A stretch of DNA of 53,006 bases from Candidatus Moraniibacteriota bacterium (GCA_030679985.1 JAUXSI010000026.1:1-53006), one strand, 5' to 3'; shown: positions 16,281-45,469, numbered from the stretch's first letter. Notes: generated by a model from the letters alone, not told the origin. Translations and numbers: made by a program.

Positions 16281-17483
16281 ATGGAATTAGACAGGGAAAA
16301 AATCATCCCACACCTTAAGCAGAAAGCCAGATTGGATTGTTATGAGGTACAAGGAAGCGTATATTCAGCGGAGAAATTCGTAGCAAAATATGCGTATTTA
16401 TTGAAGGCACATGAACAAAAAATTATCCAGGAGCAGCTAAGCAGCTTAGGAAAGGATGCGGCGGAATTGTTCAGCCGGCCGATCGCCAATGTCGAAGCGG
16501 CTAGTGTATTGGTAATAAGCAGTGAAAAATCAAGTCTGAAAAAAATCGGCAGCCGGTCAGCATATTTGGAAGAGAAAAAGTTGAAACTTAAGGGTTGCCG
16601 TCCGATGCAGGATGGGTTGTATTTCCCGCACGAGAAATTGGATTTCGGCAATAGGCAAATGACTACCACTAAAATTCCCTTCGGCGTGTTGACGGATGAA
16701 AATGTGATGCGGGAAATCCTGGCTTATTGTTTCTTGCAAAAAAATAGCATCCAGGCGATGCAACAGCCGGCTGCGGTCTTCGAATACGCGGATGGCGAGA
16801 ATATAATCGGATATTGTTTGTTGTCCTATTCACAAACTGAAGCGAGGTTGGAAGCTCAAGAAGAATTCTATGGCATGACCGTGCGGAGCTTGGTCACAGT
16901 GAGCGAGATGGAGAGGCGATTAGGGCTTGATGTTCTTGGTAAACTGGATAATTTTTCCAAAGTCAGTAATGAATGGTATGCCGAGAAGAAAAGTGATCTG
17001 ATGATCAAGATGAATTTCAACGGAGGGTTCCGCGGCGTGCTCAACAGCAATGTCGGAAATGACATCGAATACCAAGATAAATTTTATATCTGTGACTTCG
17101 ATACGTTCGAGGTGATCAATATGCCGGAGAAACCGGATTATGAGTTTATCAGAAGTTTTGTCCTGTGGAGTATCATCGAAATGTTGAAATCATCCCCACT
17201 TGTGTTCGCCTATGTGAATATGGATGGCCTAAATAGAAAAGAAGTTGCGGAGCATATCTGGGAGGTGTACACGAAAAACAGCCTATTGTGGCAGAAATAC
17301 TATCAGAAATTTTTGTCTCAAGCGATGGAGCTTGGTTGGGATGCGAACTTGATTGAAAAAGCCGTACAGGATACGGTGGCATCAGACGTGTTTTATGATA
17401 TGGCTCCGGATAATGTCATCGCTTCGGAAGTGCTCAAAAACACTTATCAACCGGAAATGTCTTTCTACACTAAGCAAGGTTAA
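16281..17483 (+). CDS. hypothetical 400-aa protein (weak protein-kinase-like signature)
   Basis: Long ORF whose stop (TAA 17481-17483) is 1 nt from the next ATG. Only weak cues: LKLKGC, VMREI, GVLNSNVGND, ICDFDTF. Confidence 0.7.
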   Translation: MELDREKIIPHLKQKARLDCYEVQGSVYSAEKFVAKYAYLLKAHEQKIIQEQLSSLGKDAAELFSRPIANVEAASVLVISSEKSSLKKIGSRSAYLEEKKLKLKGCRPMQDGLYFPHEKLDFGNRQMTTTKIPFGVLTDENVMREILAYCFLQKNSIQAMQQPAAVFEYADGENIIGYCLLSYSQTEARLEAQEEFYGMTVRSLVTVSEMERRLGLDVLGKLDNFSKVSNEWYAEKKSDLMIKMNFNGGFRGVLNSNVGNDIEYQDKFYICDFDTFEVINMPEKPDYEFIRSFVLWSIIEMLKSSPLVFAYVNMDGLNRKEVAEHIWEVYTKNSLLWQKYYQKFLSQAMELGWDANLIEKAVQDTVASDVFYDMAPDNVIASEVLKNTYQPEMSFYTKQG

Positions 17484-21223: not shown

Positions 21224-22207
21224 CTAAATTATAAAACCGAGCTTCTGTTTCACATCGAACATTTTTTGGGCGGCGATAAGGCGGACTTTGGCGGCACCTT
21301 TAGCAAGGATATCCAGGACTTCCTCGTCGCTGATGGCGCCCATCCTTTCCTGGAGAGGCTTCAAGAAACTGACTAATGCGTCAGCCAGGCCGTTTTTGAA
21401 ATCGCCATAACCCTTGCCGGCGTAGAGCTTTTCAATCTCAGCCGGAGTCCGGTCAGCTAGGAGGGAATAAATATTGATTAGGTTTTTTAAAGCCGGTTTG
21501 CTGTCATTATAAATTATTTCACTGCCGGAATCCGTCACGGCTTTTTTGATTTTCTTGCGGATGATTTCTTCCGAATCAGTCAGAGCTATGTAGTTGTATT
21601 CTGATTTAGCAGATTTGCTCATCTTTTTGGTCGGATCATCCAGGCCCATAATCCTCATTCCTTCCTCTTTGATGAAATGTTGCGGAATGATGAAAGTTTC
21701 GCCGAATTTTTTGTTGAAGCGAGCGGCCAAATCACGAGCCAGCTCGATATGCTGTAATTGGTCTTCGCCGACCGGCACGGTTTCCGTATTGTAGAGCAGA
21801 ATATCAGCCGCCATCAAAACCGGGTAATCGAATAGTCCGACACTGGCGCTTTCCCTCCCATTTTTTTGCGATTTGTCCTTGAACTGGGTCATTTTTTCCA
21901 ATTCGGGTATTTTAGCCAGGGTGTTCAGGATCCAAGCTAATTCAGTGTGTTCCGACACATGCGATTGGATGAAGATGGAAGACTTTTTAGGATCGATGCC
22001 GGCGGCCAGATATATCTTGGCGACTTCGATCGTTTTTTGGCGCAGGATTTCCGGATCCTGCGGCACGGTGATGGCGTGCAGGTCTACCACGCAAAAAATC
22101 GAATCATATTCTTCTTGCAATTTGACCCAGTTTTTGATGGCGCCTAAATAGTTGCCGAGGTGCAGGTTGCCGGATGGTTGGATGCCGGAAAAAATCCGTT
22201 GTTTCAT
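21224..22207 (-). CDS. trpS: tryptophan--tRNA ligase
   Basis: GIQPSGNLHLGNYLG (HIGH-type motif), KMSKS, class I Trp-specific length. Confidence 0.96.
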   Translation of the reverse strand: MKQRIFSGIQPSGNLHLGNYLGAIKNWVKLQEEYDSIFCVVDLHAITVPQDPEILRQKTIEVAKIYLAAGIDPKKSSIFIQSHVSEHTELAWILNTLAKIPELEKMTQFKDKSQKNGRESASVGLFDYPVLMAADILLYNTETVPVGEDQLQHIELARDLAARFNKKFGETFIIPQHFIKEEGMRIMGLDDPTKKMSKSAKSEYNYIALTDSEEIIRKKIKKAVTDSGSEIIYNDSKPALKNLINIYSLLADRTPAEIEKLYAGKGYGDFKNGLADALVSFLKPLQERMGAISDEEVLDILAKGAAKVRLIAAQKMFDVKQKLGFII

Positions 22208-22282
22208 AAGATTTCCTTTAGCTTTTATATATAAAAATTAGCATTAAAAGCGTCCTTTTGCAAACGGAATATTTTTTTATGG

Positions 22283-22288
22283 TATAAT
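22283..22288 (+). promoter_or_regulatory. -10 box TATAAT (TGG extended), 12 nt before the ATG
   Basis: tatGGTATAATGAATCTATcgatATG shares GTATAATGAATYTAT with the promoter at 24371. Implies a very short leader. Confidence 0.5.
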
Positions 22289-22300
22289 GAATCTATCGAT

Positions 22301-23362
22301 ATGAAAACAAATAAAAAAATCATTACGACTTTTGCTTGGATGTTTTTTCTGGTCTTGCCGGCCAGTACGAATTATCAATTGAAGGATTACGGCTTCGGGA
22401 CCGGCGGGACGGACAAGTCTTCTTCGAGTAATTATTCCCTGGAGGCGATTACGGGCGAGTTGGGCGGCAGCCAGGCCGCAAGCGCAGGTTACAAGGTCGG
22501 TCCGGGAATGATTTTTACGGGACAAGCCAATGTACCGGCGGCGCCGACTTTCGATAACCCCGGCAATTATTATAATAAATTGCGGATCATCCTTAATCCC
22601 TCCAATAACGCCAGCGATACCAAATTCGCCATCGCTATCAGTACGGATGATTTCATGACGACCGGATATGTGCAAAATGACAGTACGGTCGGGGCGGTTT
22701 TAGGGTTGGAAGATTATCGGACTTATGCCGGCTGGGGAGGCGCGGGTGGAACTTATATAATCGGTTTGGTAGCCGATACGGCCTACAAAGTAAAGGCCAA
22801 AGCGATGCATGGCAGCTTTTCGGAGACGGATTATGGACCAAGCGCGACTGCCGCTACCGATTCCCAAGCGCTTTCCTTTGATCTGGATGTTTCCGCGACT
22901 GATTCGGAAACTAATGCTCCGTATGCGATCGATCTGGGGAGCGTGAATTACGGCGTCGTGATCGACAGTTCGGACAAGGGTTGGGTCGATTTTGCGACTA
23001 ATGGCGAATTGGGCGGAAACGTGACAGTCAGGGGGTTGAATGCCGGACTTTTAAGTCCGACAGCGGCTTATCTGGTCAGTTCTTTGTCGGGAGATCTTGA
23101 TTCGGCGACGGAAGGCTTCGGCCTGCAAGGATCTTCGGTTGCGCAGGATTCCGGCGGACCGTTCATTATGGATGCCTTATACGACCAGGCCGGAAATATT
23201 ATCGGGATAGCGGATGCGACTGACAGGGAAATTTTTTCGTCAGCCAGTCCGGTGGCCGGTGGCCGCGGCGCATTCCTGTTGAAAGTCAAGACATCCGCGG
23301 ATACTCCTTCCGGAGGTGACTATGGCGAAACCTTGACACTGACGGCTACGGTGAATTTCTAA
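22301..23362 (+). CDS. secreted surface protein with FN3-like segment
   Basis: Signal-like N-terminus (FAWMFFLVLPAST). Repeated NYxL...GG motif. PAAPTF...YKVKAKAMHGSFSETDYGPS looks FN3-like. Terminal strand GDYGETLTLTATVNF. Confidence 0.75.
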   Translation: MKTNKKIITTFAWMFFLVLPASTNYQLKDYGFGTGGTDKSSSSNYSLEAITGELGGSQAASAGYKVGPGMIFTGQANVPAAPTFDNPGNYYNKLRIILNPSNNASDTKFAIAISTDDFMTTGYVQNDSTVGAVLGLEDYRTYAGWGGAGGTYIIGLVADTAYKVKAKAMHGSFSETDYGPSATAATDSQALSFDLDVSATDSETNAPYAIDLGSVNYGVVIDSSDKGWVDFATNGELGGNVTVRGLNAGLLSPTAAYLVSSLSGDLDSATEGFGLQGSSVAQDSGGPFIMDALYDQAGNIIGIADATDREIFSSASPVAGGRGAFLLKVKTSADTPSGGDYGETLTLTATVNF

Positions 23363-23391
23363 TCTTTCCTAAACCCCGGCTGTAGGAAAAT

Positions 23392-24351
23392 ATGCGAATG
23401 GTTATCAAAAAAATAAAAACATATTCATTCTGGGCGTCCGTTTGCTTGCTGTTTTTTGCAAGCCAGCCGGTTTTGGCGGCGGAGAAAAACCCGGGGTTTA
23501 CGCTTTCGCCTTTTTCACAAGAAATAATTATTGAGCCTGGACGGCAAGTGTCCGGTTTTTCCGTTTCGATAGAAAATACGACGGATGCGGAGGCGAGTTT
23601 CCATATTTCGGCGGTTGATTTTTCAATGCGGGATGATTCCGGGAGCGTGACCCTTTTGGAGCCCGATAACCAACCGAGAAAATATGGCTTGGCATCCTGG
23701 ATGGATTTTGATTCGGAGAGGCTGGTGCTTGGACCGGGAGAAAAAAAGAATGTGGATGTTGCGCTAAAAAATGATAGCTCTTTGGCTGTCGGCGGACATT
23801 ACGGCGCGATAGTTTTTAAGATGGAGGGCGCACCGGGATCCGCACCGGTGGCTTTCCAATTGGCCTCGTTGGTTTTCGCGCGGAAAACGGGCGGGGAAGA
23901 ACCGGGAATGGAATTGCAAGGACAGGAATTGCAGACGCGATTTTTGAAAAATCCGGCAGGAGTAAAATTATTTTTTCAAAACACCGGCAATGTCCATCTG
24001 GTTCCGCGGGGAATCGTGCGGGTAATTGATTTTTTCGGCCGGGAAGTGTCGGCGGGAATAATCAATCCGGAGTCGGCGATCATTTTGCCGGAAACTGCCA
24101 GATCTTTTCCGGTCGCGTTCCAAAAATTATCTCCGATGTTTTTTCCAGGACGCTATACCCTTTCGGTGGAATACCGTTTCGACGGGCAGGATGGTTTCGT
24201 AACGCGGAAAACCGGTTTCAATTTAATTCCGATAGGTTCTGCGATTGTTATCGCCAGCGTGATGGCGGTTATTATTGCCGTAAGCCCCATTTTATGGCGT
24301 AAAATCAAAAACAAGAACAAAAAGGCTCAAATAAAAGAGATTCAATCTTGA
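23392..24351 (+). CDS. membrane-anchored two-domain surface protein (CscA / DUF916+DUF3324-like layout)
   Basis: Signal peptide ending VLAAEK; GFTLSPFSQEIIIEPG; GGHYGAIVF. A second beta-rich half follows, then a C-terminal TM helix plus a basic KIKNKNKK tail. Confidence 0.7.
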   Translation: MRMVIKKIKTYSFWASVCLLFFASQPVLAAEKNPGFTLSPFSQEIIIEPGRQVSGFSVSIENTTDAEASFHISAVDFSMRDDSGSVTLLEPDNQPRKYGLASWMDFDSERLVLGPGEKKNVDVALKNDSSLAVGGHYGAIVFKMEGAPGSAPVAFQLASLVFARKTGGEEPGMELQGQELQTRFLKNPAGVKLFFQNTGNVHLVPRGIVRVIDFFGREVSAGIINPESAIILPETARSFPVAFQKLSPMFFPGRYTLSVEYRFDGQDGFVTRKTGFNLIPIGSAIVIASVMAVIIAVSPILWRKIKNKNKKAQIKEIQS

Positions 24352-24376
24352 CTTTTGCCTCCTCATAGTGTATAAT
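24348..24376 (+). promoter_or_regulatory. promoter TTGACT-N17-TATAAT for the giant gene
   Basis: The -35 hexamer (24348-24353) contains the TGA stop (24349-24351) of the preceding gene. The -10 is at 24371-24376. Confidence 0.65.
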
Positions 24377-24395
24377 GAATTTATAGAGCTTGAAG

Positions 24396-24427
24396 AAAGC
24401 GGGTGAATAACGCCCGTTTTCTTTTTT
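24396..24427 (+). promoter_or_regulatory. CGGGTGA leader hairpin + U-tract before the giant gene
   Basis: AAAGCGGGTG aataa CGCCCGTTTT, then CTTTTTT. Begins 19 nt after the -10. Confidence 0.5.
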
Positions 24428-24450
24428 ATTTACGTTAAAAATCTATTTTT

Positions 24451-27400
24451 ATGGGTCCAGGAAACCTAAAAATAAAAATACTTTTAACCGCTATGCTGAT
24501 TATGCTAGGGGGATTTTTTGTTTTTCAAAAAAGCGCTTCGGCGGCGGCCGGAATCAACAAGACGATAAATTTCCAAGGCAAGGTCGTCAATACGGACGGA
24601 ACTAACGTGGCTGACGCGAATTATGATTTCGTTTTCCGGAGTTATGACCAGCAAGCCCCCGGCGGAACCCTTATCTGGACGGAAAGCAAGTCCTTGGCGG
24701 TGGATGATGGTATTTTTCAAACTAATTTGGGCGATGCATCCGCTTTGCCAGGTTCGGTTGATTTCAATACGGATAATATTTATTTAGGCATCGAATTCAA
24801 TAGTAATGGCGAGATGGCTCCGCGCGTGCAGTTCACAGCCGCGCCGTATGCTTTCAACGCGGACAAGTTGGATGGGCAGGATTGGGAAATTCCGGGGGCG
24901 ATCGGATCGGTGACGCCGAACTCCGGAACGTTTACGGCATTGGGGGTTTTGGAATCCGGAATAGCACCTGTCTTCAAGACTATTTTCCAGGGCGCGGACC
25001 AAGCTTCGGACATCACTTACACGCTTCCGGCAATTTCAGCCGATGGGTTATTAAAAAACGATAGCGGAACACTTTCTTGGGATACGGCGAATTACCTGGT
25101 CAACCCGATGTCGACACTAGGGGACATCATATATGGCGGAATATCCGGCGCGCCGACCCGCTTGGCTGGTTCGGCCGGCTTTTTGACTTCGACTGGCGCG
25201 GCCGCACCGGTTTGGACGGCAGCTACGACTGATTATTTCAACCAATACGCTCTTTTGGAGGGCCGTGCAGGCGGACAAGTATGGATAGGTGGGACGGCGG
25301 CCAATGATATGCTGACTATCCAAGGTAATAGCGCTTCAAGCGGCAATGTCGGAACCAACACGGCAATGTTGTTCAAGGTAGGTGATTCCGGCGCAACTAC
25401 GGCTTTCTCTATCTTGCAGGATGGGACTTTAAATTTTCAAAACAGCGCAACCCAAAATATCCGCATTGAAAATGCCGATGCCAGCGTACTGGCTCCGTCT
25501 TGTGATGGAACATCATTAGGGCGGATGTACTATGACACTTCCGCCGGTTCGGCGTTCGTGTGTATCGAGAGCGCGCCTGGTGTCTATGGCTGGTTCGATT
25601 ATACGACGACCAGCGTCCAATCGAATAAAGTGGTGACGGTAGGAACAGGCGGCGATTTCACTTCCATTTCCGCCGGCGCGGGATATCTGAACGCTTTGGG
25701 CGGCGGAATAATATTGCTGACTCCGGAAACGCACAATGTCACCAGTTCCGTGGATTTGTCCAATATCAACCTGATCGGCGCGAATACCGGCGATACCCGC
25801 ATAAATATCACCGGAAGCGGAGTGTTGCGCGTCAAAGAAACGCAATTCAAATCATTGACGATTTATGTCGATGCGGCAATCGCGTCAGCGGCTGGAATCG
25901 ATGCCAAATATGATGCCGCGACCACAACCTCGGTCATTTTCGAATGGGTGGATTTCATCACTAACGGAACGAAGGTGTTGTTGGACAGCTCCGAAGCCAC
26001 AAGTCCGGTTATCAGGACAAGGTTTATCAGCGTTTCCGCCACTTCAGGCACCCAAAAAATATTATTGCCGCAAGCCACTTCCAATATCGACGCGAGTTCG
26101 ACCAACTTTGTCGAATCGCAAGGCGGCAGCGGTGCGTTGGATTTGGAGGACTGGGATGTTAAAATCGCCGGCTCATCCAATGTGAAAACTTCCGGGACCA
26201 TTACGACCATCCCGGCCAGCACCATATATGTTTATCCGGGTATGAACATCCAAGCCGCGATCAACAGCGTTTCAAGCGGAGGAGTGATCACGCTTTTGCC
26301 GGGAGTGCACAATATCACCAGTACGCTTTTAATCGACCGCAGTGACATCCAGATCCAGGGATATGGCGACTCTTCAATCGTACGTGCCGCGGGCTTTGTC
26401 GGCGGCGACCAAGTGGCCGCGTTCCACATCGGATCTCTGGACGGCGCTGTTCCCCAAGACGGAGTGGTGTTGAAGGATTTCCGTTTGGAAGTTTCCGGCA
26501 CCGGCGCCAGCGACATTCACGGTATCCGGGTAGCCGGCGGCGAAGACAATCAGATTTTGAACATATCTGTCGTCAAAACAGCCGGCGCCAGCGGTACGGG
26601 AGCCGGAGCCAGAATCGGTATTTTTATGCTTGACGGGACTGCTGAAAAATTGGCCCGTCCGGTAATCAAAGGCTGCCGCGTTTTGGGCGACTCCGCGGTG
26701 ACGGCGTATTTTACCGACGGAATTCATGTGACTGGCGGCGCCGGATATGGCGTCGGGTCGGGAGTGTGGACCAACGGCCAGGGCGTTGACGGGGCGTTGG
26801 TGGATGGAAACTATGTCGATTATGTGCGGGAAACGGTGGCGGTTTTCGTCGGGACCAACAACAGTTCACTTTTCAATAACCGGTTCACGCGTATGGGCGC
26901 GGGCGGCGGCGGAGCTTTCGGTGTGTTTATGGGTAATGCGTCCAATGTCAATATGACAGCCAATGTGGTCAGTACTTCCCTTTCGACGGCTTCTTCCGGA
27001 ATCGTCATAGACGGTTTGGACTCGGGTAGTTTGAAACAAATGACCGATTCGGCATTCACTTCCAATACGGTCGACGGCTCGGCCAATGGCGGAGTGGGAT
27101 TCGCGACCGGCGTGGTAATCGGAGCGGCGGCCAATACCGGATTTCATCGCAATCTATTCACGAATAACATAATTAACGGCGCTTCCGATCTGGTGACGGT
27201 GGCGATCAGGATCACCGGAAATGCGGATGACAATAATTTTTCCAATAATTCCATAAATGGAATCAATAATGCTTGGGATACCGGAATCAATATCGTTTCA
27301 AACACCGCTGATCGCAATTTCATCGGCAAGAACGCGTTTATCAATGTGACGGCAACAGTAGCCGATGCCGGTATCGCGACCCAATTGAATGTGACCCAGC

Positions 27401-29979
27401 ATGATGCCGCAATCGATCCGACCGCAAGCGATGACAGCGCGGATGGGTATGTAGTCGGGACGGTTTGGGTCAATACGGCTACGCAAAGCGCGTATATCGC
27501 GACCGGCGTGTCAATCGGAGCGGCGGTTTGGGAACAAATTGACGGGGCGGCCAGCGGCTCATCGACATTGCAAAGCTCCTATGACGCGGCTGGCGGCAAT
27601 ACGATTACGACGACCAGCGGAAAAAACATCGCTTTTACGCTGGGCGAGACGGCAACGCCGACTTCATTCACGGTTGAAAACCAAGATACGGCCGGAGTTT
27701 CGGCGGAACGGATTTCCAATTCGATCGCATCGGGCACTTTGACCAACGGCTTGCTTTTCGAACAGACCGGCGCGGGATCGGTTACCAACGCCATCAATAT
27801 TTTGGAAACAGCCGGCGCGATTTCTACCGGAATCAACATCGGCAACAATATCGGCACCGGAATTTCCATCGGCACCGGTTTGACTACCGGCATCTCGGTG
27901 GGCTCCGGCGGAATCATCATCAACGGCGGCGCCTTGGCTATCGATAACGCGGCCGGCATCACCAGCAACCAATCGGCGATGGCGATCAATGTGAACGGAG
28001 CCGCGACCGGCAACGTGCAGATCGGCGATGGCGGCGCAGCTTCAGCGACTCCGGATATGCTGGTTTTGGATGCCGGGTCCGTGGAGCCGGCCGGTACGGA
28101 TGGTGCGATGTATTATTCGACCGCTTTGGGTAAATTCAGATGTTACGAAAACAGCTCTTGGAAAGATTGCATCTCTACGGCCGCTTCTTCTTTGCCGGAC
28201 ACGGCGGTTTTCACCGATGCGACCCCGGCGGCGTGGACGGATTCCAATACTACGGAAGTTTTCAACGACGCGACCAAACCGAACATCGCGACTGATTCGG
28301 CCAGCTCCACGGTCCTGGTACACGTCCAGGTTTATGGGCAGACCTCCAACACCAACGCTGACGCGATTTTGGCGGCGCGGATCGTGCGGACGACCGACGG
28401 AAGCAATCCTTCCTGCGCTTCGGCGACCAATGTCGGCGTGCCGATGATCGGTAATTTCACGACTTCCACCTCACAACCTTGGCAGATAGTCGGAACGTTC
28501 ATCGACAGTCCGGCCACGGCCGGCACGATCAGATACACCGTATGTACCAGTTCCGATTCGGCCGGTACGGCGACGGATACTCCGAACCAGGTCATTGTGG
28601 AGTTGGCCGAACTGGGCGCCGACTTGGCAGAAAATTATTATACGCAGGATGATTCCATCGAGCCGGGCGACGTCGTGGCGATTAACGGGGATATATCGGC
28701 GGGCATCAAAAAATCGGAGAAAATTTATGACCAGAATGTGATCGGCGTGATTTCGACCAATCCGGGCATCACATTGGATGACGCGATCGGAATCGGACAG
28801 GGTCGTCCGGTAGCTGTGGCGCTGGCCGGCCGTATCCCGGTCAAGGTTTCCAGTGAAAATGGGCGGGTAAAAGCCGGAGATTACTTGACCGCTTCTTCCG
28901 TGCCGGGCGTGGCGATGAAAGCAACTAAAACCGGTTTGGTAATCGGGCAAGCCTTGCAGGATTTCGGTTATGCCGACGATACGGTCGGATTGGTGCTGAC
29001 TTTCGTGAAAAACGCCTATTTTAATGGAGCGCAAATCGTCGATAGTGAAAACGAAATATTGTCCGGAACGGATCTTTTGCAGAAACTTTTGCTGGACAAG
29101 GCGCAAATCGACACCGCGGCGCCGGTCAGTGAGATTGTGAGCGATAGGATCGTGGCCGGATTGGAAATGGTGACGCCGCAACTGGTGACGGATAGCATTA
29201 TCGCGAAAACCATCCGGGCTGAGCATATCGAAGGGCTGGAAATCATAGAAACTGGAATCCAAAACGCGCAGGAGGCCGCTACGGACAATGCCGATGAAAT
29301 GGAGAGTTTGGGGCAGAAAATTACCCGCATCCAAAAGACCATCCAGTCTTGGAATGATAAATCCGGCAACTTTATAATAAGCAGCTTGGTCGAATTCCGT
29401 GGACGAGCAACGTTCAAATCCATTGCGGAATTTATGGATAAGGTTATTTTCCGCAAGGACGTCGAATTTGCCGGGCAGGCGATGTTCAACCAAGACGCGG
29501 CCGGCTATGCGGTAATCAATGAAGGCCAAGATAAAGTTGAAGTGGTTTTTGAAAAAGAATATGCGGCAGTCCCGGTAGTGACTGCGAGCATTTCCTTGCA
29601 ACAGATCGAAGATGACGAGGTGCGCAAAGCGGCGGAAGAATTGTTATTGTTGAATAAAGCCAATTATATAATCACCGATGTCACCGAAAAAGGATTTGAA
29701 ATCCGCATAGACCAAAAGATGGTTTCGACGATTCCATTTTCTTGGCAGGCGGTGGCGGTGAAAGATGTGAAAACTTTCAGCAAAAACAGCAAAGATAAAA
29801 ATAGGAAAACCGATCAAGTCGATGTTGTGGCAGAAGAAGAGGAAGAAGCTGTGAGCGTCGAAGTCGCCGATCAGAGCCAGGCAGGAGCGGGGGATGGCGC
29901 GTCCGACAACGGGGATGCGGAGATGGAGGAAAGCGATCCGTCGATAAGCGATGGAGAGATCGCTGTGGCGATGCCATAA
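24451..29979 (+). CDS. giant (1842 aa) surface protein with right-handed beta-helix repeats and tail-fibre-like termini
   Basis: N-terminal anchor or signal. INFQGKVVNTDGTNV...YDFVFRSY...IWTE module. Many NxxxxN/G beta-helix rungs (NNRFTRMG, FTSNTVDGS, FTNNIINGA, FSNNSINGI). DLAENYY..EPGDVV..GRIPVKVS C-terminal module, coiled coil and acidic tail. Confidence 0.85.
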   Translation: MGPGNLKIKILLTAMLIMLGGFFVFQKSASAAAGINKTINFQGKVVNTDGTNVADANYDFVFRSYDQQAPGGTLIWTESKSLAVDDGIFQTNLGDASALPGSVDFNTDNIYLGIEFNSNGEMAPRVQFTAAPYAFNADKLDGQDWEIPGAIGSVTPNSGTFTALGVLESGIAPVFKTIFQGADQASDITYTLPAISADGLLKNDSGTLSWDTANYLVNPMSTLGDIIYGGISGAPTRLAGSAGFLTSTGAAAPVWTAATTDYFNQYALLEGRAGGQVWIGGTAANDMLTIQGNSASSGNVGTNTAMLFKVGDSGATTAFSILQDGTLNFQNSATQNIRIENADASVLAPSCDGTSLGRMYYDTSAGSAFVCIESAPGVYGWFDYTTTSVQSNKVVTVGTGGDFTSISAGAGYLNALGGGIILLTPETHNVTSSVDLSNINLIGANTGDTRINITGSGVLRVKETQFKSLTIYVDAAIASAAGIDAKYDAATTTSVIFEWVDFITNGTKVLLDSSEATSPVIRTRFISVSATSGTQKILLPQATSNIDASSTNFVESQGGSGALDLEDWDVKIAGSSNVKTSGTITTIPASTIYVYPGMNIQAAINSVSSGGVITLLPGVHNITSTLLIDRSDIQIQGYGDSSIVRAAGFVGGDQVAAFHIGSLDGAVPQDGVVLKDFRLEVSGTGASDIHGIRVAGGEDNQILNISVVKTAGASGTGAGARIGIFMLDGTAEKLARPVIKGCRVLGDSAVTAYFTDGIHVTGGAGYGVGSGVWTNGQGVDGALVDGNYVDYVRETVAVFVGTNNSSLFNNRFTRMGAGGGGAFGVFMGNASNVNMTANVVSTSLSTASSGIVIDGLDSGSLKQMTDSAFTSNTVDGSANGGVGFATGVVIGAAANTGFHRNLFTNNIINGASDLVTVAIRITGNADDNNFSNNSINGINNAWDTGINIVSNTADRNFIGKNAFINVTATVADAGIATQLNVTQHDAAIDPTASDDSADGYVVGTVWVNTATQSAYIATGVSIGAAVWEQIDGAASGSSTLQSSYDAAGGNTITTTSGKNIAFTLGETATPTSFTVENQDTAGVSAERISNSIASGTLTNGLLFEQTGAGSVTNAINILETAGAISTGINIGNNIGTGISIGTGLTTGISVGSGGIIINGGALAIDNAAGITSNQSAMAINVNGAATGNVQIGDGGAASATPDMLVLDAGSVEPAGTDGAMYYSTALGKFRCYENSSWKDCISTAASSLPDTAVFTDATPAAWTDSNTTEVFNDATKPNIATDSASSTVLVHVQVYGQTSNTNADAILAARIVRTTDGSNPSCASATNVGVPMIGNFTTSTSQPWQIVGTFIDSPATAGTIRYTVCTSSDSAGTATDTPNQVIVELAELGADLAENYYTQDDSIEPGDVVAINGDISAGIKKSEKIYDQNVIGVISTNPGITLDDAIGIGQGRPVAVALAGRIPVKVSSENGRVKAGDYLTASSVPGVAMKATKTGLVIGQALQDFGYADDTVGLVLTFVKNAYFNGAQIVDSENEILSGTDLLQKLLLDKAQIDTAAPVSEIVSDRIVAGLEMVTPQLVTDSIIAKTIRAEHIEGLEIIETGIQNAQEAATDNADEMESLGQKITRIQKTIQSWNDKSGNFIISSLVEFRGRATFKSIAEFMDKVIFRKDVEFAGQAMFNQDAAGYAVINEGQDKVEVVFEKEYAAVPVVTASISLQQIEDDEVRKAAEELLLLNKANYIITDVTEKGFEIRIDQKMVSTIPFSWQAVAVKDVKTFSKNSKDKNRKTDQVDVVAEEEEEAVSVEVADQSQAGAGDGASDNGDAEMEESDPSISDGEIAVAMP

Positions 29980-30014
29980 TCATAAGACAAACGAAAATTT
30001 AGATAGAAGAAAAT

Positions 30015-30045
30015 AAAAAATCCCGATTTCCTGGCGGGATTTTTT
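30015..30045 (+). terminator. terminator after the giant gene
   Basis: AAAAAATCCCG ... CGGGATTTTTT. Confidence 0.75.
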
Positions 30046-30120
30046 ATTTGGAAAAAAATTTCCATTGTGTAAAAAATAAATCTATGTTAATATGCAATCA
30101 ATATCCGCTAACTTTAGGTT

Positions 30121-31293
30121 ATGCAAAAAATAGAAAAAGAAAAATCAAAAATAGAAACGATCGACAAGTTGTTCGCGAAAAAAAAACCGGTTAAAAAATC
30201 CGTGGCGATGAAATCGGAAGATGAGAAACAAATACAAGCGCCGGAAACGGCTGGAGTAGAAAGCGGAAGAGGGAAAAACGCACAGAGGGGACCGGAAGTG
30301 GTCGCGGTGCGGAGAAGGTCTCCGGGAAAAAACAGCCGGCGCGTGGCGGATAGTAAGGAGAAGGCCGTGTCTGCGGAAACGGATTTGAAGACGGGCAAAA
30401 AAAAGTCCGTGATCGAAATCAAGGCGCCGGTTCCAGGAAGACCGGGCGGACGGACTAAGATCAAGGAATGGGAAGATGCTGATTGGGTGGATAAGGCTGA
30501 TCCAGTGGCCTATAAGAATATGAAAATAAAGCACATCAAAAGGAAAGTTATCCGAAATGTCGCCTGGGCCTGCGTCGTTCTGGCGGGCGTCGGGTCGTTG
30601 TATTTTTATAGCAGGCATATGGAAGTGGGAATCTGGCGGAAGTCTGATACGTCCCAGATAAGCGGCGCTGGAAACGATGCCGGACAAGTCCAGGACGATC
30701 TTCAGATGACCAAGGCGGCTGTCGAAAAGCTTATGGAATTGCCGGTCGGTGAGGAACCGGTGCTGGCCACCGTGACAGATGTCGACAAAATCAGGACGCA
30801 GAAATTTTTCGATAAGGCGCAAAATGGCGACCGAGTGCTGATTTACAAGGATAATCAGAAATTGATCTTGTACCGCCCGACTATCAATAAAATTATTGAA
30901 GTTTCACAGACTTCTGGATTGGAAGCTAAAGCGCCAAGCGCGGATCAAACCGCACAAGTCACTAATGATGCCGCTCCGGCAGCCGATGAGGCTGTGGCGG
31001 CGGAGTCTCCCGTGAGAGTCGCGGTGTATAACGGTTCAACGATAAAGGGGTTGGCGAAGAAAATCGGCGGAACAGTCGCGTTGTTGCCGGGAACCGCGAT
31101 CGTGCAGACAATCAACGCCGCCGAGAATTACACCAAGACTTCCGTAATCGACCTTTCCGGAAGCCATTCCGAGCTGGCCCAGAAAATCGCGGAATCGCTC
31201 GGCGGGGAAATCGGAACTTTGCCGGAAGGGGAGAAAGCTCCGGAAGCGGACATTCTGGTTATCGGCGGAAGCGAATACGGATCGGGTCAATAA
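30121..31293 (+). CDS. membrane protein with C-terminal LytR_C-like domain
   Basis: Basic N-terminal region and TM helix (VAWACVVLAGVGSLYFY). C-terminal VRVAVYNGSTIKGLAKKIGG...DILVIGGSEY is typical of LytR_C. Confidence 0.75.
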   Translation: MQKIEKEKSKIETIDKLFAKKKPVKKSVAMKSEDEKQIQAPETAGVESGRGKNAQRGPEVVAVRRRSPGKNSRRVADSKEKAVSAETDLKTGKKKSVIEIKAPVPGRPGGRTKIKEWEDADWVDKADPVAYKNMKIKHIKRKVIRNVAWACVVLAGVGSLYFYSRHMEVGIWRKSDTSQISGAGNDAGQVQDDLQMTKAAVEKLMELPVGEEPVLATVTDVDKIRTQKFFDKAQNGDRVLIYKDNQKLILYRPTINKIIEVSQTSGLEAKAPSADQTAQVTNDAAPAADEAVAAESPVRVAVYNGSTIKGLAKKIGGTVALLPGTAIVQTINAAENYTKTSVIDLSGSHSELAQKIAESLGGEIGTLPEGEKAPEADILVIGGSEYGSGQ

Positions 31294-31315
31294 CAGGACA
31301 AAATATTTTGTAAAC

Positions 31316-31345
31316 AAAAAAGACTGTCCAGGAACAGTCTTTTTT
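31316..31345. terminator. bidirectional terminator (LytR_C gene / rnj)
   Basis: AAAAAAGACTGT ccagga ACAGTCTTTTTT. Confidence 0.85.
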
Positions 31346-31367
31346 GTTTGTTTTTTAGATCAAGCCA

Positions 31368-33275
31368 TTAGACTTCAATCACGACCGGCAAGACCATCGG
31401 CCTTCTTTGCGTTTTGGAATAGAGGAACGATCCGACAGTTTCGCGGATATTGTTTTTCACATAATCCCAATTGACAGCCGTATCCGGCGAGGTTTTCTTT
31501 TCAACGATTTCTTCGACTTTCTTCTTGGTGGCGTTCACCAAATCGAAATTTTCTTTGACGAAGATGAATCCACGAGAGGTGACTTGCGGTTTGCCGATGA
31601 TTTTTTTGGTTTTACTGTCAATGATTACCGTGATGACGAACATCCCGTCTTGCGCCAGCAATTGGCGGTCACGCAATACTACTTGGCCGATGTCGCCGAC
31701 CCCGAGGCCGTCGACCATGACGTAGCTCGTATCGACTTTGTTGGGCAGGAGTTTGGCTTTGTTATTCTGTATTTCCAAAATATTTCCATTATCCAAGACG
31801 AAAATATTGTCGCGGCGGAAGCCGGTCCGGATAGCCAATTTCTCGGCTTCTTTCAACATATAATGGTTGGCGTAGACCGGCAGGAAGAAGTCCGGCTGGA
31901 CTTGGCGCAGGATATTCTGGATATCTTGGGCGCTGCAATGTCCGCTGGTGTGCACGTCCAGGATGTCGCTGTGGATCACATTGTCGCATTTGCGATAAAG
32001 ATTATCTTTCAACCGTTGGATGGTGCGCTCGTTGCCGGGGATTATGGACGAGGAGAATATGATCGTGTCATCTTTTTGGATCTGGATATGGCGGTGTTCG
32101 CCGTTCACGATGCGTGAGAGCACGGCATTGCCTTCGCCCTGGGCGCCGGTGCAGATGATGATGATTTTATTCTTGGGATATTTGGAGATATCGGAAACGG
32201 GGATCAAAGTCGCTTTATGCATCTTGATGTAACCCAGTTCTTTGGCGATTTCAACGTTCATTTTCATACTGTAACCGTCCAGGGCCACCTTCTTGCCGAT
32301 CTGTTCGGCGTATTCCAGGATATGGCCGATCCGCCTGATCTGTGAGGAAAAGGTCCCGATTATGATTTTGCCGGGCGCTTCGTCGATCAGCTTTTCCAGA
32401 TTGGCGTACATTTCCTCTTCAGTCGTGCGGCTCGGATTGGTGACGATCGCGCCTAAGCTTTCCAGCATCATAATCCGCGGGCTGGGCAATTTGGACAATT
32501 CGGTATAATCGGTGAGCGATTTGCCGGTCGCATCCTTTTCCATCGTCCAGTCTCCGGGATGGATTACCGTGCCGTGGGGCGTCCGGATGATGACTCCGAC
32601 CGCGTCCATAATGGAATGTTCCACTTCGAAAAATTCAATCCTGAATTTGCCCAAAGTTATCTTATCGGTTACCGATCCGACCCGGATCGTTTTGAGATTT
32701 TCAGCTGAGCCTTTATCGAAATCTTCCATCTTCTTTTTGACCATCGCGATAGTCATATCTCGGCCGACGACGACCGGGTACCCGAGCTGTTTGAGCAGGA
32801 GGGGAGCGGCTCCGATATGGTCAAGGTGGCCATGGCTGAGAACCACGCCGCGCACCTGTTTCTCCTTGCCCTTCAGGTAATTGATGTTAGGTATGATATA
32901 GTCGATGCCGGGCATATCTTCTTCCGGGAACATCATACCCATATCCAAGATGACGATATCGCCGTCATATTCGAAAAGGGTCATATTGCGTCCGACTTCC
33001 TCCTGGCCGCCGAGCGGAATGATGCGTAAGTTGTCCTTGGAATGGATGTTCGGCTTGGTCTGGGCGTCGGCCGGCTTCGCTTTGATTTGCGCGTGGTTCA
33101 TCCGCGACCTGTTGCGGTTTTTTGCCGGGGCGCCCTGATTTTTGGCTGGAAGCGGTTTCACTTCGGCCTTGGCATACGTCGGACGTGCCGAGTTCCGGGC
33201 GTGGACCGGCGGTTTGTCCGGTCTGCTAGATGACCCGCCTGCCGGATGGACAGGTAAGTTTGTTTTGTTTAACAT
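31368..33275 (-). CDS. rnj: ribonuclease J (with basic N-terminal extension)
   Basis: Metallo-beta-lactamase HGHLDHIG and a beta-CASP region, at RNase J length. About 85 extra Lys/Pro/Ala-rich residues at the N-terminus. A later ATG (33101) is also possible. Confidence 0.93.
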   Translation of the reverse strand: MLNKTNLPVHPAGGSSSRPDKPPVHARNSARPTYAKAEVKPLPAKNQGAPAKNRNRSRMNHAQIKAKPADAQTKPNIHSKDNLRIIPLGGQEEVGRNMTLFEYDGDIVILDMGMMFPEEDMPGIDYIIPNINYLKGKEKQVRGVVLSHGHLDHIGAAPLLLKQLGYPVVVGRDMTIAMVKKKMEDFDKGSAENLKTIRVGSVTDKITLGKFRIEFFEVEHSIMDAVGVIIRTPHGTVIHPGDWTMEKDATGKSLTDYTELSKLPSPRIMMLESLGAIVTNPSRTTEEEMYANLEKLIDEAPGKIIIGTFSSQIRRIGHILEYAEQIGKKVALDGYSMKMNVEIAKELGYIKMHKATLIPVSDISKYPKNKIIIICTGAQGEGNAVLSRIVNGEHRHIQIQKDDTIIFSSSIIPGNERTIQRLKDNLYRKCDNVIHSDILDVHTSGHCSAQDIQNILRQVQPDFFLPVYANHYMLKEAEKLAIRTGFRRDNIFVLDNGNILEIQNNKAKLLPNKVDTSYVMVDGLGVGDIGQVVLRDRQLLAQDGMFVITVIIDSKTKKIIGKPQVTSRGFIFVKENFDLVNATKKKVEEIVEKKTSPDTAVNWDYVKNNIRETVGSFLYSKTQRRPMVLPVVIEV

Positions 33276-39996: not shown

Positions 39997-41955
39997 ATGC
40001 AATTTAAGATTAACAGTAAATACAAGCCGGCTGGGGACCAGCCGCAGGCGATTGAGAAACTGGTGGCCGGCCTCAAAACTGGCAATAAATTCCAGACGCT
40101 TTTAGGCGTGACAGGGTCGGGCAAAACTTTCACGATCGCCAATGTGATCGAGCAGGTGCAGAAGCCGACTTTGGTGATCGCGCCCAACAAGACTTTGGCG
40201 GCCCAGTTGGCCCAGGAATTCCGGACTTTTTTCCCGAAAAACGCGGTGGAATATTTCGTGTCCTACTATGACTATTACCAGCCGGAAGCCTACATCGCTT
40301 CCTCTGATACGTATATTGAAAAGGAATCCCAGATCAATGAAGAGATTGACCGGTTGCGCCATGCTTCGACGGCCGCCCTGCTGTCGCGGGAGGATGTGAT
40401 TATCGTGGCTTCGGTGTCGTGCATCTACGGTTTGGGCTCCCCGGAATATTACCGGGATATTTCGCTGGAAATCAAAGTCGGGCAGAAAATATCGCGCGAC
40501 GAGATTGCGAGCGAGCTTGTCGATATGCAATATCTGCGGACGGACATTTTGGGACGCAGCAAATTCCGTATGACCGGGGAGACGATCGAAGTGATGTCGC
40601 CGGCACGGGAAATCGTGACGCGCATCGAGCTCTGGGACGGGCAGGTGGAAAAGATTTTTGAATATGATTTTTTGACCGGCAGTGAATTGGGCCGGCTTGG
40701 GCAAGCGATGATTTTCCCGGCTAAGCATTTCGTGGTGCCGGAGCCGATCATGCAAGAAGCGCAAAGCGCGATTGAAAAAGATCTGGCAAGCCAAGTCGCC
40801 CTTCTGAAAAATGCCGGCAAGTTGCTGGAAGCGGAGCGGTTGAGCCGGCGCACGCGCCAGGATATCGAAATGATGCGCGAAATCGGCTATTGCAACGGCA
40901 TTGAGAATTATTCGCGCTATCTGACGGGGCGCAATGCGGGGGAGGCGCCCGACACTTTGATCGATTATTTCCCTAAGGACTTTTTGATGGTCGTTGACGA
41001 ATCGCACGTGACCATCCCGCAGATCGGCGGGATGTTCAACGGGGATTATTCGCGCAAGAAATCTTTGGTGGACAACGGCTTCCGCCTGCCGAGCGCCTTT
41101 GATAACCGGCCGTTGAAATTTCCGGAATTTGAGAAAAAAATAAAGCAGTTGATATTCACTTCGGCGACGCCGTCCGTGTATGAAAAAGAACATTCGGAGC
41201 AAGTGGTGGAGCAGATTATCCGACCGACGGGACTTATCGATCCGGAAGTCATCATTAAGCCGGCCAAGGGGCAAGTGAAAGATGTCTTGCCGGAAATCGA
41301 AAAAATCGTCGCGAAAAAAGAACGGGTGCTGATCACGACGCTGACGAAAAAAATGGCCGAAGATTTGTCGGAATTCCTGCTGGAAAACAAAATCAAGGCG
41401 GACTATCTGCACTCTTCGGTCGAAACGTTGGACCGCATCCGCATTTTGGAAAACCTGCGACGCGGCGAATTCGACGTGCTGGTGGGCGTGAACCTTTTGC
41501 GGGAAGGTTTGGATCTGCCGGAAGTGTCCCTGGTCGCGATTTTGGACGCGGACAAGGAAGGTTTTTTGCGCAGCGAAACCTCGCTGATCCAGACGATCGG
41601 GCGGGCGGCGCGCAATGTTTCAGGCAAAGTCATTTTATACGCGGACCAAATCACCGGTTCGATGAAGCGGGCGATCGACGAGACCAACCGGCGGCGGGCG
41701 GTGCAGACGGCTTATAATAAAAAACACCACATAACGCCCAAAACGATCAAGAAAAACATCGAATCGATAGTGGACCATGAGATCAAACCGGAGCTTACGC
41801 GCGATTTCACGGAACTGGAATCTTTGGAAGATATCCAGGGCTATATCAAACAGAAAGAGCGCGAGATGAAAGAGGCTTCCAAACTTTTGCAATTCGAGAA
41901 AGCGGCGGTTATCCGGGATGAAATCGCCGAGTTGCGCAAGTTGCAATTGAAATAG
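39997..41955 (+). CDS. uvrB: excinuclease ABC subunit B
   Basis: GVTGSGKTFT Walker A, VVDESHVT, helicase motifs, C-terminal UVR domain FEKAAVIRDEIAELRK. Confidence 0.98.
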   Translation: MQFKINSKYKPAGDQPQAIEKLVAGLKTGNKFQTLLGVTGSGKTFTIANVIEQVQKPTLVIAPNKTLAAQLAQEFRTFFPKNAVEYFVSYYDYYQPEAYIASSDTYIEKESQINEEIDRLRHASTAALLSREDVIIVASVSCIYGLGSPEYYRDISLEIKVGQKISRDEIASELVDMQYLRTDILGRSKFRMTGETIEVMSPAREIVTRIELWDGQVEKIFEYDFLTGSELGRLGQAMIFPAKHFVVPEPIMQEAQSAIEKDLASQVALLKNAGKLLEAERLSRRTRQDIEMMREIGYCNGIENYSRYLTGRNAGEAPDTLIDYFPKDFLMVVDESHVTIPQIGGMFNGDYSRKKSLVDNGFRLPSAFDNRPLKFPEFEKKIKQLIFTSATPSVYEKEHSEQVVEQIIRPTGLIDPEVIIKPAKGQVKDVLPEIEKIVAKKERVLITTLTKKMAEDLSEFLLENKIKADYLHSSVETLDRIRILENLRRGEFDVLVGVNLLREGLDLPEVSLVAILDADKEGFLRSETSLIQTIGRAARNVSGKVILYADQITGSMKRAIDETNRRRAVQTAYNKKHHITPKTIKKNIESIVDHEIKPELTRDFTELESLEDIQGYIKQKEREMKEASKLLQFEKAAVIRDEIAELRKLQLK

Positions 41956-42039
41956 GTCTGGGCCAGGCAGGGACTATTTTACTCTAAAAAACATCCATGT
42001 TAAAATTATGAAAAGCAGTAAAACAAGGATTTCAAAAAT

Positions 42040-43449: not shown

Positions 43450-43593
43450 TGATTGCACAGGGAACGTGTCTGGCGATGCCTTTGGCGCGTATTGTGCAAA
43501 AAAGGATGGCAGTGTAAAATGGGTAAATAAACAATTAATTGATCCCGTTAAAAATGTCCAGAGTGTTTTGACGCTATGTGATGGATTGCCGGG

Positions 43594-44634
43594 ATGGATA
43601 AGATCATGGAAGAGACAAAAGTTGAAACAGCCGAAATTGAGGAGGCCAAGACGGAAGGAAAGCGGTTGCAGGTCCTTAGCGACAGGTGCCGGAAGATTTT
43701 TTGTGAGAAAAAGCGTCCGATTATCGCCGGACTGGCGGTTTTGCTGGTCATCGCGATCGGAGTCGGCGTGTATTTCTATAAATTCAGGACCGAGGATATC
43801 GGTTTGGAGGGCGCCAAGAACAAGGTCTTGGAATTCGTGAACGGCAATTTGTTGCAACCCGGGACGGTTGCGACCGTGGAAGACGCTGAGCGGGAGGGCG
43901 GTTTGTACAAAATCACCATAAATATCGCCGGAAAACAGAAAGTGGCGACCTACCTGACCAAGGACGGCAAGAAGTTTTTCCCGGAGGGCATGGATACGGA
44001 TGTCGAGAAGCGGGAAGTCGCCGAAAAGCAACCCGAGGAAGTGAAGGAAGTCCCTAAAAATGACAAGCCGGTCATCGATCTGTATGTGATGAGTTTTTGC
44101 CCTTTCGGAAACAAGGCCGAAGACACCTTGAAACCGGCGTATGATTTGTTGAAGAAAAAAGTCGATTTCAATTTCCATTATATCGTAAGCTCCAATGGCG
44201 AAGAGATCCTGTCGCTCCATGGGCCGAAAGAAGTCGCGCAGAACGAAAGGGAAGCTTGCGTGTTGAAAAATTATGGCAAGGACAGATGGTTTTCTTTCGT
44301 AGCCTACGTGAATAAGAATTGCGGCAGTGACGGGGCTTGCTGGGAAACCGGGATAAGGAGTATGGGCTTGTCAGTGGACAAAATAAACAACTGCGTCAAT
44401 TCGGAAGGCTCGGCCTTGATGAAAGAAAATGAAAAGGCTTCGACGGAAGCCGGCGCCCAGGGATCTCCGACGATGTTGATCAACGGGGTTCCGACCAGGA
44501 CGGTATATCAATATGGTAATTCCGAGGTTTACAAACAGGTGGTTTGCGACGCTTTCAATAAGGCTCCGGCCGAGTGCGCGAAAAAATTGAGCACGCAAGC
44601 GGCAGTGACGGAAGGCGGCAGCTGCGGAAATTAG
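43594..44634 (+). CDS. membrane-anchored DsbA/GILT-like thioredoxin-fold protein (CPFG active-site variant)
   Basis: TM helix (IIAGLAVLLVIAIGVGVYFY). DLYVMSFCPFGNKAE active-site region. cis-Pro loop GSPTMLINGV. Confidence 0.75.
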   Translation: MDKIMEETKVETAEIEEAKTEGKRLQVLSDRCRKIFCEKKRPIIAGLAVLLVIAIGVGVYFYKFRTEDIGLEGAKNKVLEFVNGNLLQPGTVATVEDAEREGGLYKITINIAGKQKVATYLTKDGKKFFPEGMDTDVEKREVAEKQPEEVKEVPKNDKPVIDLYVMSFCPFGNKAEDTLKPAYDLLKKKVDFNFHYIVSSNGEEILSLHGPKEVAQNEREACVLKNYGKDRWFSFVAYVNKNCGSDGACWETGIRSMGLSVDKINNCVNSEGSALMKENEKASTEAGAQGSPTMLINGVPTRTVYQYGNSEVYKQVVCDAFNKAPAECAKKLSTQAAVTEGGSCGN

Positions 44635-45466: not shown

Positions 45467-45469
45467 TTC

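Follow-up and report, generated by a model that had tools for sequence, protein, structure and literature searches.

A probable Pam-type, chaperone-assisted assembly locus for a giant MAT-like adhesin in a Moraniibacteriota genome

A large part of bacterial diversity belongs to the Candidate Phyla Radiation (CPR), whose members live in attachment to host cells; to our knowledge, their attachment machinery is barely known. Here, we analyzed a block of four consecutive genes, g1 to g4, within a 53,006-nt stretch of DNA from Candidatus Moraniibacteriota bacterium (GCA_030679985.1 JAUXSI010000026.1:1-53006), hereafter the window. All four genes lie on the plus strand as open reading frames (ORFs) of 353 aa (g1, 22301-23362), 319 aa (g2, 23392-24351), 1842 aa (g3, 24451-29979) and 390 aa (g4, 30121-31293). 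We consider it fairly probable that the locus encodes a Pam-type assembly system that works with a chaperone and with neither usher nor sortase, that it displays a giant adhesin resembling the mosaic adhesive trimer (MAT) fibres of Bdellovibrio, and that it is a reduced form of a colinear operon widespread in CPR bacteria.

Among known systems, the Pam pilus of CPR bacteria comes closest; it has been described for Candidatus Mycosynbacter amalyticus and for other members of the CPR (Troman et al., bioRxiv 10.64898/2026.03.03.709456). According to this preprint, the pili consist of two-domain pilins joined by donor-strand exchange, and the system includes two PapD/FimC-like chaperones with C-terminal transmembrane helices, the tip pilin PamT, the RbmA-like anchor PamR, and also a protein termed “tail fibre-like” that is consistently co-localised with the operon. 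Cysteines were reported for PamA and PamB, as is the case for the pilin2 proteins described below, and the preprint makes no mention of WxL, DUF916 or LytR. A second point of comparison is the WxL/Csc clusters of Lactobacillales and Listeria, in which the protein WxLIP combines DUF916, DUF3324 and a transmembrane helix (Hassan et al. 2023, PMC10599100; PDB 9i1y, 9i25); AlphaFold2 (AF2) predicts that a hairpin of DUF916 inserts into the WxL domain (PMC10599100). The MAT fibres of Bdellovibrio bacteriovorus are reported to share an invariant N-domain that has no structural homologues and is presumed to bind a surface element as yet unidentified (Caulton et al. 2024, PMC10769870).

An earlier note on this DNA had described the block as four genes for exported or anchored proteins. 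Its positions, lengths and strand were exact for all four ORFs, and the export and anchoring features that it had listed were present. These were a signal sequence, an NYxL/GG-rich N-terminus and a terminal strand for g1, a signal peptide, two beta-rich halves, a GGHYGA motif and a C-terminal transmembrane helix for g2, and a basic N-terminus, a transmembrane helix and a LytR_C-like end for g4.

The g2 protein, a member of the family here called CHAP1, has a Sec signal, two immunoglobulin (Ig)-like domains, a transmembrane helix at its C-terminus and a basic KIKNKNKK tail. In its AF2 monomer (predicted local distance difference test score, pLDDT, 88.5), a signal helix at residues 3-23 is followed by beta-sandwiches at residues 36-165 and 173-278 and by the transmembrane helix from residue 281. 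The best Foldseek match of the model was 9i25_C, the E. faecium WxLIP bound to a long WxL protein (E = 1.4e-10). The next matches were Caf1M, CsuC, CfaA, FimC, DraB and SafB, all with a probability of 1.0, and E-values against the chaperones of chaperone-usher systems ranged from 1e-10 to 1e-8. Pfam WxLIP_PGBD (DUF916, PF06030) matched g2 with E = 2e-4 and 21.8 bits, the gathering score being 27.3; matches at E ≤ 0.01 were obtained for 28 of the 62 members of the g2 family (best 1.2e-6). When the family profile was searched against PDB sequences, the best match was EfmWxLIP1 (E = 0.025). The sequence of g2 had no detectable homology to the Pfam PapD families. The g2 protein thus has the two-Ig-domain fold that is found in the PapD/Caf1M/FimC chaperones and in the Firmicute WxLIP, and the Pfam, profile and Foldseek matches together indicate a membrane-tethered chaperone of this fold.

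The GGHYGA motif is invariant across the g2 family. The most conserved motif of the family, DFGxLDESGGVAFLG...KYGLASW (residues ~76-103), coincides with the one low-confidence loop of the model. This hairpin (residues ~77-100) is a candidate for a donated strand; a strand that becomes ordered only in a complex would look alike. A profile search with the chaperone alignment found 11,567 representatives, and the best 150 of these 11,567 were all close CPR relatives, so that this search gave no bridge to WxLIP. Some members of the chaperone superfamily were about twice the normal length, namely P0327 (648 aa), P0345 (636 aa) and P0427 (585 aa), and in P0327 three stretches matched the profile, the best of them in the C-terminal half. 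These double-length representatives may be fused tandem chaperones or chaperone-pilin fusions.

The g1 protein is a secreted two-domain beta protein without cysteines. Behind its signal peptide lies a repeat region (residues 20-75), followed by an FN3-like domain (~83-185), for which the sequence signal is weak, and by a C-terminal beta-sandwich (~191-353) that ends in the strand GDYGETLTLTATVNF, conserved as DYxETLTLTATVNF-COOH. Within residues 24-66, NYQL, NYSL and GYKV mark three S-x-N/G-Y-x-hydrophobic repeats with Gly-rich turns. The N-terminal repeat is homologous to the tip pilin PamT: NCBIfam PamT matched residues 20-73 only (E = 1.4e-8), did likewise for 42 of the 61 members of the G1 family, and in hhalign residues 20-75 paired with residues 31-93 of full-length PamT. 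The models used for the Pam components were NF058578 (PamR), NF058579 (PamT) and NF058581 (Pam_pilin_C). The AF2 monomer of g1 (pLDDT 83.8) showed the two-domain beta architecture, FN3-like plus beta-sandwich, and its top Foldseek matches were CsuE and CfaE, two-domain tip adhesins of chaperone-usher systems. Residues 17-71 had a pLDDT of only ~40 yet were conserved as strongly as the folded domains. At the other end, a C-terminal strand with an aromatic last residue is common to G1, pilin2 and PamT proteins (...DYxETLTVIASASF, ...DYTDTLTVVAAGRF, ...AYSGNIVLVATGTY). Sequence searches of the PDB with g1, g3, g4, a PamT (from locus L076) and a pilin2 (from locus L008) gave nothing useful.

The giant protein g3 begins with a module, g3N (24451-24915, residues 1-155), that comprises a signal peptide and a beta-rich domain of ~110 aa (INFQGKVVN...FQTNLG...PYAFNADK). 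These 155 residues are 47-72% identical to the N-termini of otherwise unrelated giants, and the module is kept in essentially all giants of the operon family. The rest of the protein (24916-29979, residues 156-1842) consists of a lineage-specific body (residues ~155-1000), a shuffled module that occupies varying positions in other giants (~1025-1260), a C-terminal module (~1389-1776) that recurs in ~20 other giants and has a weak H-type-lectin-like domain at its end, and an acidic tail. The NCBIfam model Bdello_MAT_N (NF053851) matched 27 of 28 diverse g3N modules at E ≤ 0.01, with a best value of 5.5e-18, and g3 itself scored 22.7-30 bits, below the cut-off of 60. This pattern indicates domain homology with the MAT N-domain and not membership of that subfamily. 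As judged from sequence profiles, g3 is a mosaic giant with an N-terminal domain homologous to the N-domain that is invariant in the Bdellovibrio MAT fibres. The earlier note had called g3 a beta-helix fibre, a label supported by none of the tools applied; no Pfam Beta_helix match was found, and a BLASTP self-comparison revealed no internal repeats. Giants encoded behind the chaperone reach 4651 aa (L092, 17941-20942, on a 1.09-Mb Saccharimonadia contig, with the gene running off the locus) and ~3000 aa in several Moranbacteria (L021, 1986-11174; L041, 11629-20442). Their bodies are very diverse and include Kelch, LVIVD, Laminin_G_3 and SO2946-like_C domains.

The g4 protein, which spans the membrane once, has a basic, cytoplasmic N-terminus (residues 1 to ~140; 40 Lys plus Arg among the first 150 residues), a transmembrane helix (~143-165), a conserved “mid” domain of ~65 aa (~200-265) and a LytR_C domain (298-364), the last with 24.0 bits against a Pfam cut-off of 22.2. 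Both extracellular domains are kept in the homologues of Moranbacteria and Microgenomatia, and the mid domain is found alone in most Saccharimonadia. The basic N-terminal extension (residues 1-140, window positions 30121-30540) is common only to the closest relative, locus L001. The gene is also the fastest-evolving of the block, with 66% DNA identity against 80-82% for the others.

Scanning GTDB genomes with the chaperone alignment yielded 80 related loci in Moraniibacteriota, Paceibacterota, Saccharibacteria, Shapirobacteria and Woesebacteria. Their ORF calls were classified by profiles, and the counts given here use loci with enough flank. The scan revealed a colinear same-strand operon in the order (PamR, small transmembrane protein)-G1-pilin2 (one or two copies)-chaperone2 (one or two copies)-CHAP1-(small transmembrane protein)-giant with g3N-g4-like. 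Upstream of the g2-family chaperone, G1 was present in 50/50 loci, pilin2 in 49/50 and chaperone2 in 35/50. Downstream of it, a giant gene with g3N was present in 69/70 loci and a g4-like gene in 29/41. Genes of the g1 and g2 families and genes bearing g3N are thus found in a fixed order in essentially every related locus, with a g4-family gene in ~70%, and the co-occurrence across related genomes that the earlier note had proposed to check was borne out strongly. In relatives at ~83% identity, the order g1-g2-g3-g4-RNase J is intact, and L005 has the same PGM-TrpRS context upstream as the window, plus an extra pilin2 gene. All g1 and g2 homologues with a named source come from CPR bacteria.

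Around 25 metagenome-assembled genomes (MAGs) from the scan are titled “Bdellovibrionales”. Their flanking genes are up to 98% identical to and colinear with those of Moraniibacteriota MAGs (e.g., L078 versus L069), which indicates that the labels are wrong and that these MAGs are Moranbacteria. The third-party annotation (TPA) MAGs named “uncultured Bdellovibrionales bacterium” correspond to L015, L019, L025, L032, L033, L040, L044, L046, L050, L054, L056-L058, L062, L064, L068, L078 and L082. A search of the loci labelled “Bdellovibrionales” for the housekeeping genes that flank the block in the window found none.

The related loci also connect the block to the Pam pilus. In loci of the Saccharimonadia type, the operon starts with a gene that NCBIfam PamR matches over almost its whole length (3.4e-83 in L008), and a PamT with a Pam_pilin_C domain is located nearby (1.3e-35 in L008); in L008 both belong to the operon that carries the g1- and g2-family genes. 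The same PamR/PamT layout is repeated in L076, L084, L090, L092 and L093, and PamR was found in related operons of L008, L067, L076, L083, L084, L087, L090, L092 and L093. The pilin2 proteins of these operons carry 2-6 cysteines, and the G1 proteins carry none. Further likenesses to the Pam system are that the block is CPR-restricted and Sec-dependent and has no usher or sortase; that g2 is a two-Ig PapD-like chaperone with a C-terminal transmembrane helix, PamC and PamD being compared by description only; that g1 is a secreted two-domain beta pilin-like subunit whose N-terminus is homologous to PamT; that a giant, “tail fibre-like” neighbour lies downstream; and that the orthologous operons of Saccharimonadia place PamR and PamT beside g1- and g2-family genes. 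Since orthologous operons contain PamR and PamT-like proteins, the Pam pilus is a closer relative of the block than the WxL/Csc system.

The locus also differs from the published Pam model. It has one pilin-like gene and one chaperone gene, and it has no PamR, no PamT and no cysteine-containing shaft pilins; g1 is not matched by Pam_pilin_C; g4, with its transmembrane helix and LytR_C domain, is not part of the published model; and the Moranbacteria/Parcubacteria-like lineage lies outside the classes emphasised by the preprint. No pilin2, chaperone2, PamR or PamT was found in the 53-kb window, where a tblastn search with the PamR of L008 was likewise empty. The block is a rare minimal form of the operon, consisting of a pilin-like subunit, a chaperone, a giant fibre and g4.

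Several observations weigh against a Pam-type assembly. With PamR, PamT and the major pilins absent from the window, the locus may form no filament at all. The match between g1 and PamT covers PamT positions 27-80, that is ~55 N-terminal residues, and scores 34.5 bits against a cut-off of 240, and g1 has no match to CPR_Pam_pilin_C (NF058581) at E ≤ 1. The g2 protein matches no NCBIfam family at E ≤ 1, and no PamC or PamD model was among any of the matches. Foldseek TM-scores were low, 0.3-0.45 for g2 and ~0.2 for g1. The gene order in the related loci (R-tm-G1-pilin2-chaperone2-CHAP1-giant) differs from that of M. amalyticus as inferred from accession numbers, since the GenBank numbering there (pamB QHN43269, pamA QHN43273) suggests a different arrangement. 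In addition, a terminator-like hairpin and separate promoters imply that the four genes are not strictly one transcript, and because the structure models are of monomers only, donor-strand complementation is an analogy.

The earlier note had instead likened the block to a WxL/Csc-type surface complex. The part of this idea that held was the fold of g2 and the logic of the cluster. The architecture of g2 is that of WxLIP (signal peptide, two Ig-like domains, C-terminal transmembrane helix), WxLIP is its best match both in structure and among PDB sequences, and in both proteins a hairpin of the first domain is the candidate inserted strand. Likewise, both kinds of cluster combine a small secreted protein with a two-Ig protein that is anchored and with a very large one in which a single terminal module is conserved and the binding domains vary; the gene-size pattern of the block is analogous to that of WxL clusters. 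The family assignment did not hold, as neither a Pfam WxL match at E ≤ 1 nor a W-x-L motif was found in g1-g4. None of the 62 g2 family members matched WxLIP_HBD/DUF3324, the second WxLIP domain for which the earlier note had suggested a search, and the DUF916 match of g2 itself stayed below the Pfam cut-off. There is no LPxTG partner, as g1-g4 contain no LPxTG motif; the conserved module of the giant is N-terminal and MAT-like here and not a C-terminal WxL domain; and the organisms are CPR bacteria here and Firmicutes there. A true WxL/Csc complex, in which g2 would be a WxLIP orthologue that fixes a WxL-type g1 and g3 non-covalently to peptidoglycan, could draw on the top-ranking WxLIP matches of g2 and on the sub-threshold WxLIP_PGBD matches in its family. 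Given these differences and the PamR and PamT genes in orthologous operons, we regard it as improbable, and membership of the WxL/Csc family is largely refuted. The likeness is best understood as a PapD-like chaperone, tethered to the membrane, that both systems have in common. Our literature searches found nothing that joins WxL systems to donor-strand or chaperone-usher mechanisms, and a search on the words Patescibacteria and donor strand found nothing joining these two.

Two further systems also resemble the block. Like the classical and archaic chaperone-usher pairs (Caf1M-Caf1, CsuC-CsuA/B/E, CfaA-CfaB/E, FimC-FimA/H), it has a chaperone with the g2 fold and a subunit, g1, whose best structural matches are the tip adhesins CsuE and CfaE. 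The last strand of its subunits is conserved and finishes on an aromatic residue, and their conserved terminal extensions could serve as donor strands. In contrast to these systems, there is no outer membrane and no usher here (neither the window nor the related loci contained an usher-like gene), the chaperone is membrane-tethered and not soluble, and a giant fibre belongs to the operon. With the MAT fibres, the block shares the homologous N-terminal domain and the general design of giant mosaic proteins in which the N-domain is invariant and the distal modules are swapped, and in both cases the encoding bacteria attach to other bacteria. It differs in that g3 falls short of the 60-bit cut-off, that no S74 domain was detected in g3, and that the fibre gene here always lies directly behind pilin and chaperone genes.

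From the folds, homologies and gene order we infer the following interactions for the Pam-type assembly that we favour. After Sec export, g2 would stay tethered to the membrane and cap the incomplete beta-sandwich of g1 by donating the hairpin at residues ~77-100; it could possibly cap the g3 N-domain too, and it may also hold the aromatic C-terminus of the subunit. Subunits would then join by donor-strand exchange through the conserved N-terminal extension of g1 that is disordered in the monomer model. The giant g3 would be displayed distally as a host-binding fibre, and g4, by means of its LytR_C domain, would organise the assembly or anchor it to the membrane or the cell wall. Because the locus has no cysteine-containing major pilins, chaperone2, PamR or PamT, its product is probably a short stalk or a direct g1-g3 complex and not a long pilus.

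The same missing parts are compatible with the display of a fibre without any pilus, in which g1 would be a non-polymerising adaptor, loaded by g2, that joins the MAT-like N-domain of g3 to the envelope, with g4 as the anchor. G1, CHAP1 and the giant gene form the invariant core across the loci, with the other parts varying, the N-terminus of G1 is shared with the tip pilin PamT and not with shaft pilins, and tip adhesins are the best structural matches of g1, all of which would suit an adaptor. However, binding between g1 and g3N is a supposition, the N-terminal extension and the C-terminal strand of g1 equally permit self-polymerisation, and the source genome may encode pilin2 or PamR outside the window. 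We therefore consider an adaptor of this kind rather unlikely, and prefer Pam-type assembly in a reduced form.

The four genes probably form three transcription units, g1-g2, g3 and g4. Upstream of g1, an extended -10 element (TGGTATAAT) and the 15-mer GTATAATGAATCTAT lie on the plus strand (22280-22296). The TATAAT ends 12 nt ahead of the g1 ATG and no Shine-Dalgarno (SD) sequence precedes the gene, which suggests that g1 is translated from a near-leaderless mRNA. In the spacer upstream of g1, only TGnTATAAT and its distance to the ATG are conserved in L001. As for the other genes, g2 has an SD sequence (AGGA at -9 to -6) and g3 has none. The 15-mer GTATAATGAATYTAT, which the earlier note had reported as shared by the promoters of g1 and g3, was found at 22282 and 24370; these are its only two exact copies in the window, where 0.24 would be expected by chance even at 2 mismatches. 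The second copy lies together with a promoter-like site, TTGACT-17-TATAAT (24348-24384, plus strand, 11/12 matches), that overlaps the stop codon of g2.

Between this putative g3 promoter and the g3 ATG lies a terminator-like hairpin (24392-24424; 14 pairs, loop AATAA) with a T-run (24392-24432 in all, plus strand), a feature absent from the earlier description. Compared with L001, TTGACT and TATAAT are identical, the 17-nt spacer differs at ~5 positions, and the stem is fully kept. Overall, the g2-g3 spacer is 90% identical to that of L001, against 80-82% for adjoining coding DNA and 41% for the g1-g2 spacer. As the hexamers are kept while their spacer varies and the stem is intact, the promoter seems real, with a terminator-like hairpin directly after it, and the hairpin between g2 and g3 makes three transcription units more probable than one. 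The distance from this sigma-70-like promoter to the hairpin is ~15 nt, and its transcripts would reach the terminator almost immediately. An Rfam scan of 21900-31600 gave nothing near any gathering score, so the hairpin is no known leader or riboswitch; an attenuator is conceivable, as is a stem that stabilises the 5' end. In ~39 of 76 related loci (giant-gene spacers only), some terminator-like hairpin stands in front of the giant gene, which fits its being expressed at a lower level than the genes for pilins and chaperones. One hairpin design (A-tract, CGGGTGA...CCCG stem, GTGA-type loop, T-tract) recurs before the giant gene in many Moranbacteria operons, including L012, L013, L014, L016, L020, L021, L024, L030, L031, L055 and others. 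The two terminators that the earlier note had placed at 30015 and 31316 were located as well: an intrinsic terminator after g3, AAAAAATCCCG-loop-CGGGATTTTTT (30014-30049, plus strand), identical in L001, and a bidirectional hairpin of 18 pairs (31310-31351) between the convergent g4 and RNase J genes.

Separate promoter-like sites and terminators, present in the g2-g3 spacer as well as in the g3-g4 spacer, are what would be expected of four unrelated envelope genes that are transcribed independently and adjacent by chance. The name “tail fibre-like” given elsewhere to proteins of the g3 type would also fit the remnant of a prophage or tailocin tail fibre. Against both stands the order and co-occurrence of the genes, kept across Moranbacteria, Saccharimonadia and Microgenomatia. 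No phage genes lie nearby, the flanks are housekeeping genes, and their PGM-TrpRS context recurs in L005. The prophage idea was dropped after a PHROGs search gave no match for g3 and one weak match of unknown function for g2. A chance neighbourhood or a phage remnant is thus highly improbable, and the synteny statistics already refute the view that the genes are unrelated.

The other genes of the window are housekeeping genes, namely rpoC, ftsK, a carbamoyltransferase gene, PGM, TrpRS, RNase J, a solute-binding protein gene, uvrB, two uvrA and uvrC. An excision-repair cluster extends over 39997-52773, where uvrB (39997-41955) is accompanied by two full-length UvrA paralogues (45568-48453 and 49921-52773) on either side of uvrC (48470-49774). 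Two ORFs of the window, 16281-17483 (400 aa) and 42040-43449 (469 aa), had no Pfam match at E ≤ 0.001. Among the related loci, L004/L023 (Moraniibacteriota JAQTRS010000003.1; L004, 3163-9904) has genes for a type IV pilus immediately upstream of its G1-pilin2-chaperone operon. They comprise T2SSE and T2SSF, several N_methyl pseudopilins and a protein of 453 aa with a PilM-like N-terminus and a LytR_C domain. Two filament systems are therefore neighbours in this locus, and LytR_C appears once more in connection with a pilus. In L007, a complete F-type ATP synthase operon (145-6956) is situated upstream of the chaperone and giant genes, at a distance of a few kb, and recalls the ATP-synthase surroundings that have been reported for pam operons. 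Upstream of the chaperone, that locus had no detectable pilin2; a fragment resembling chaperone2 was found at the end of the locus, on the opposite strand.

These results do not overturn current ideas on CPR surface structures. What is new is the minimal core, the connection of WxLIP with the CPR chaperone, and the MAT N-domain as the conserved docking module. A Pam-type system, or a sister of it, reaches well into the Moranbacteria/Parcubacteria with a very rigid operon grammar. The functional core is likely to be what the natural minimal version retains, namely one pilin-like subunit, one chaperone, the giant fibre and the membrane protein with LytR_C. Between the chaperone family and the WxLIP of Gram-positive WxL clusters a relationship can be detected, a link not made in the Pam preprint; such a link would join, by a single mechanism, two surface systems that are poorly understood. 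More speculatively, and in our judgement with a low probability, G1, the membrane-tethered PapD/WxLIP-like chaperone and the giant with a MAT N-domain might be the minimum to which an ancient assembly pathway of outer-membrane-less bacteria can be reduced, a pathway that needs neither usher nor sortase and is homologous between CPR Pam pili and Firmicute WxL/Csc systems. Its main job would be the docking of giant mosaic adhesins, with long pili as an add-on. If this were true, the MAT-type N-domain would be the module that is recognised by the pilin or the chaperone, which would hint at the kind of surface partner used by the Bdellovibrio MAT fibres. As the giants share their N-terminal domain with these prey-recognition fibres, the block offers a testable candidate for the docking partner.

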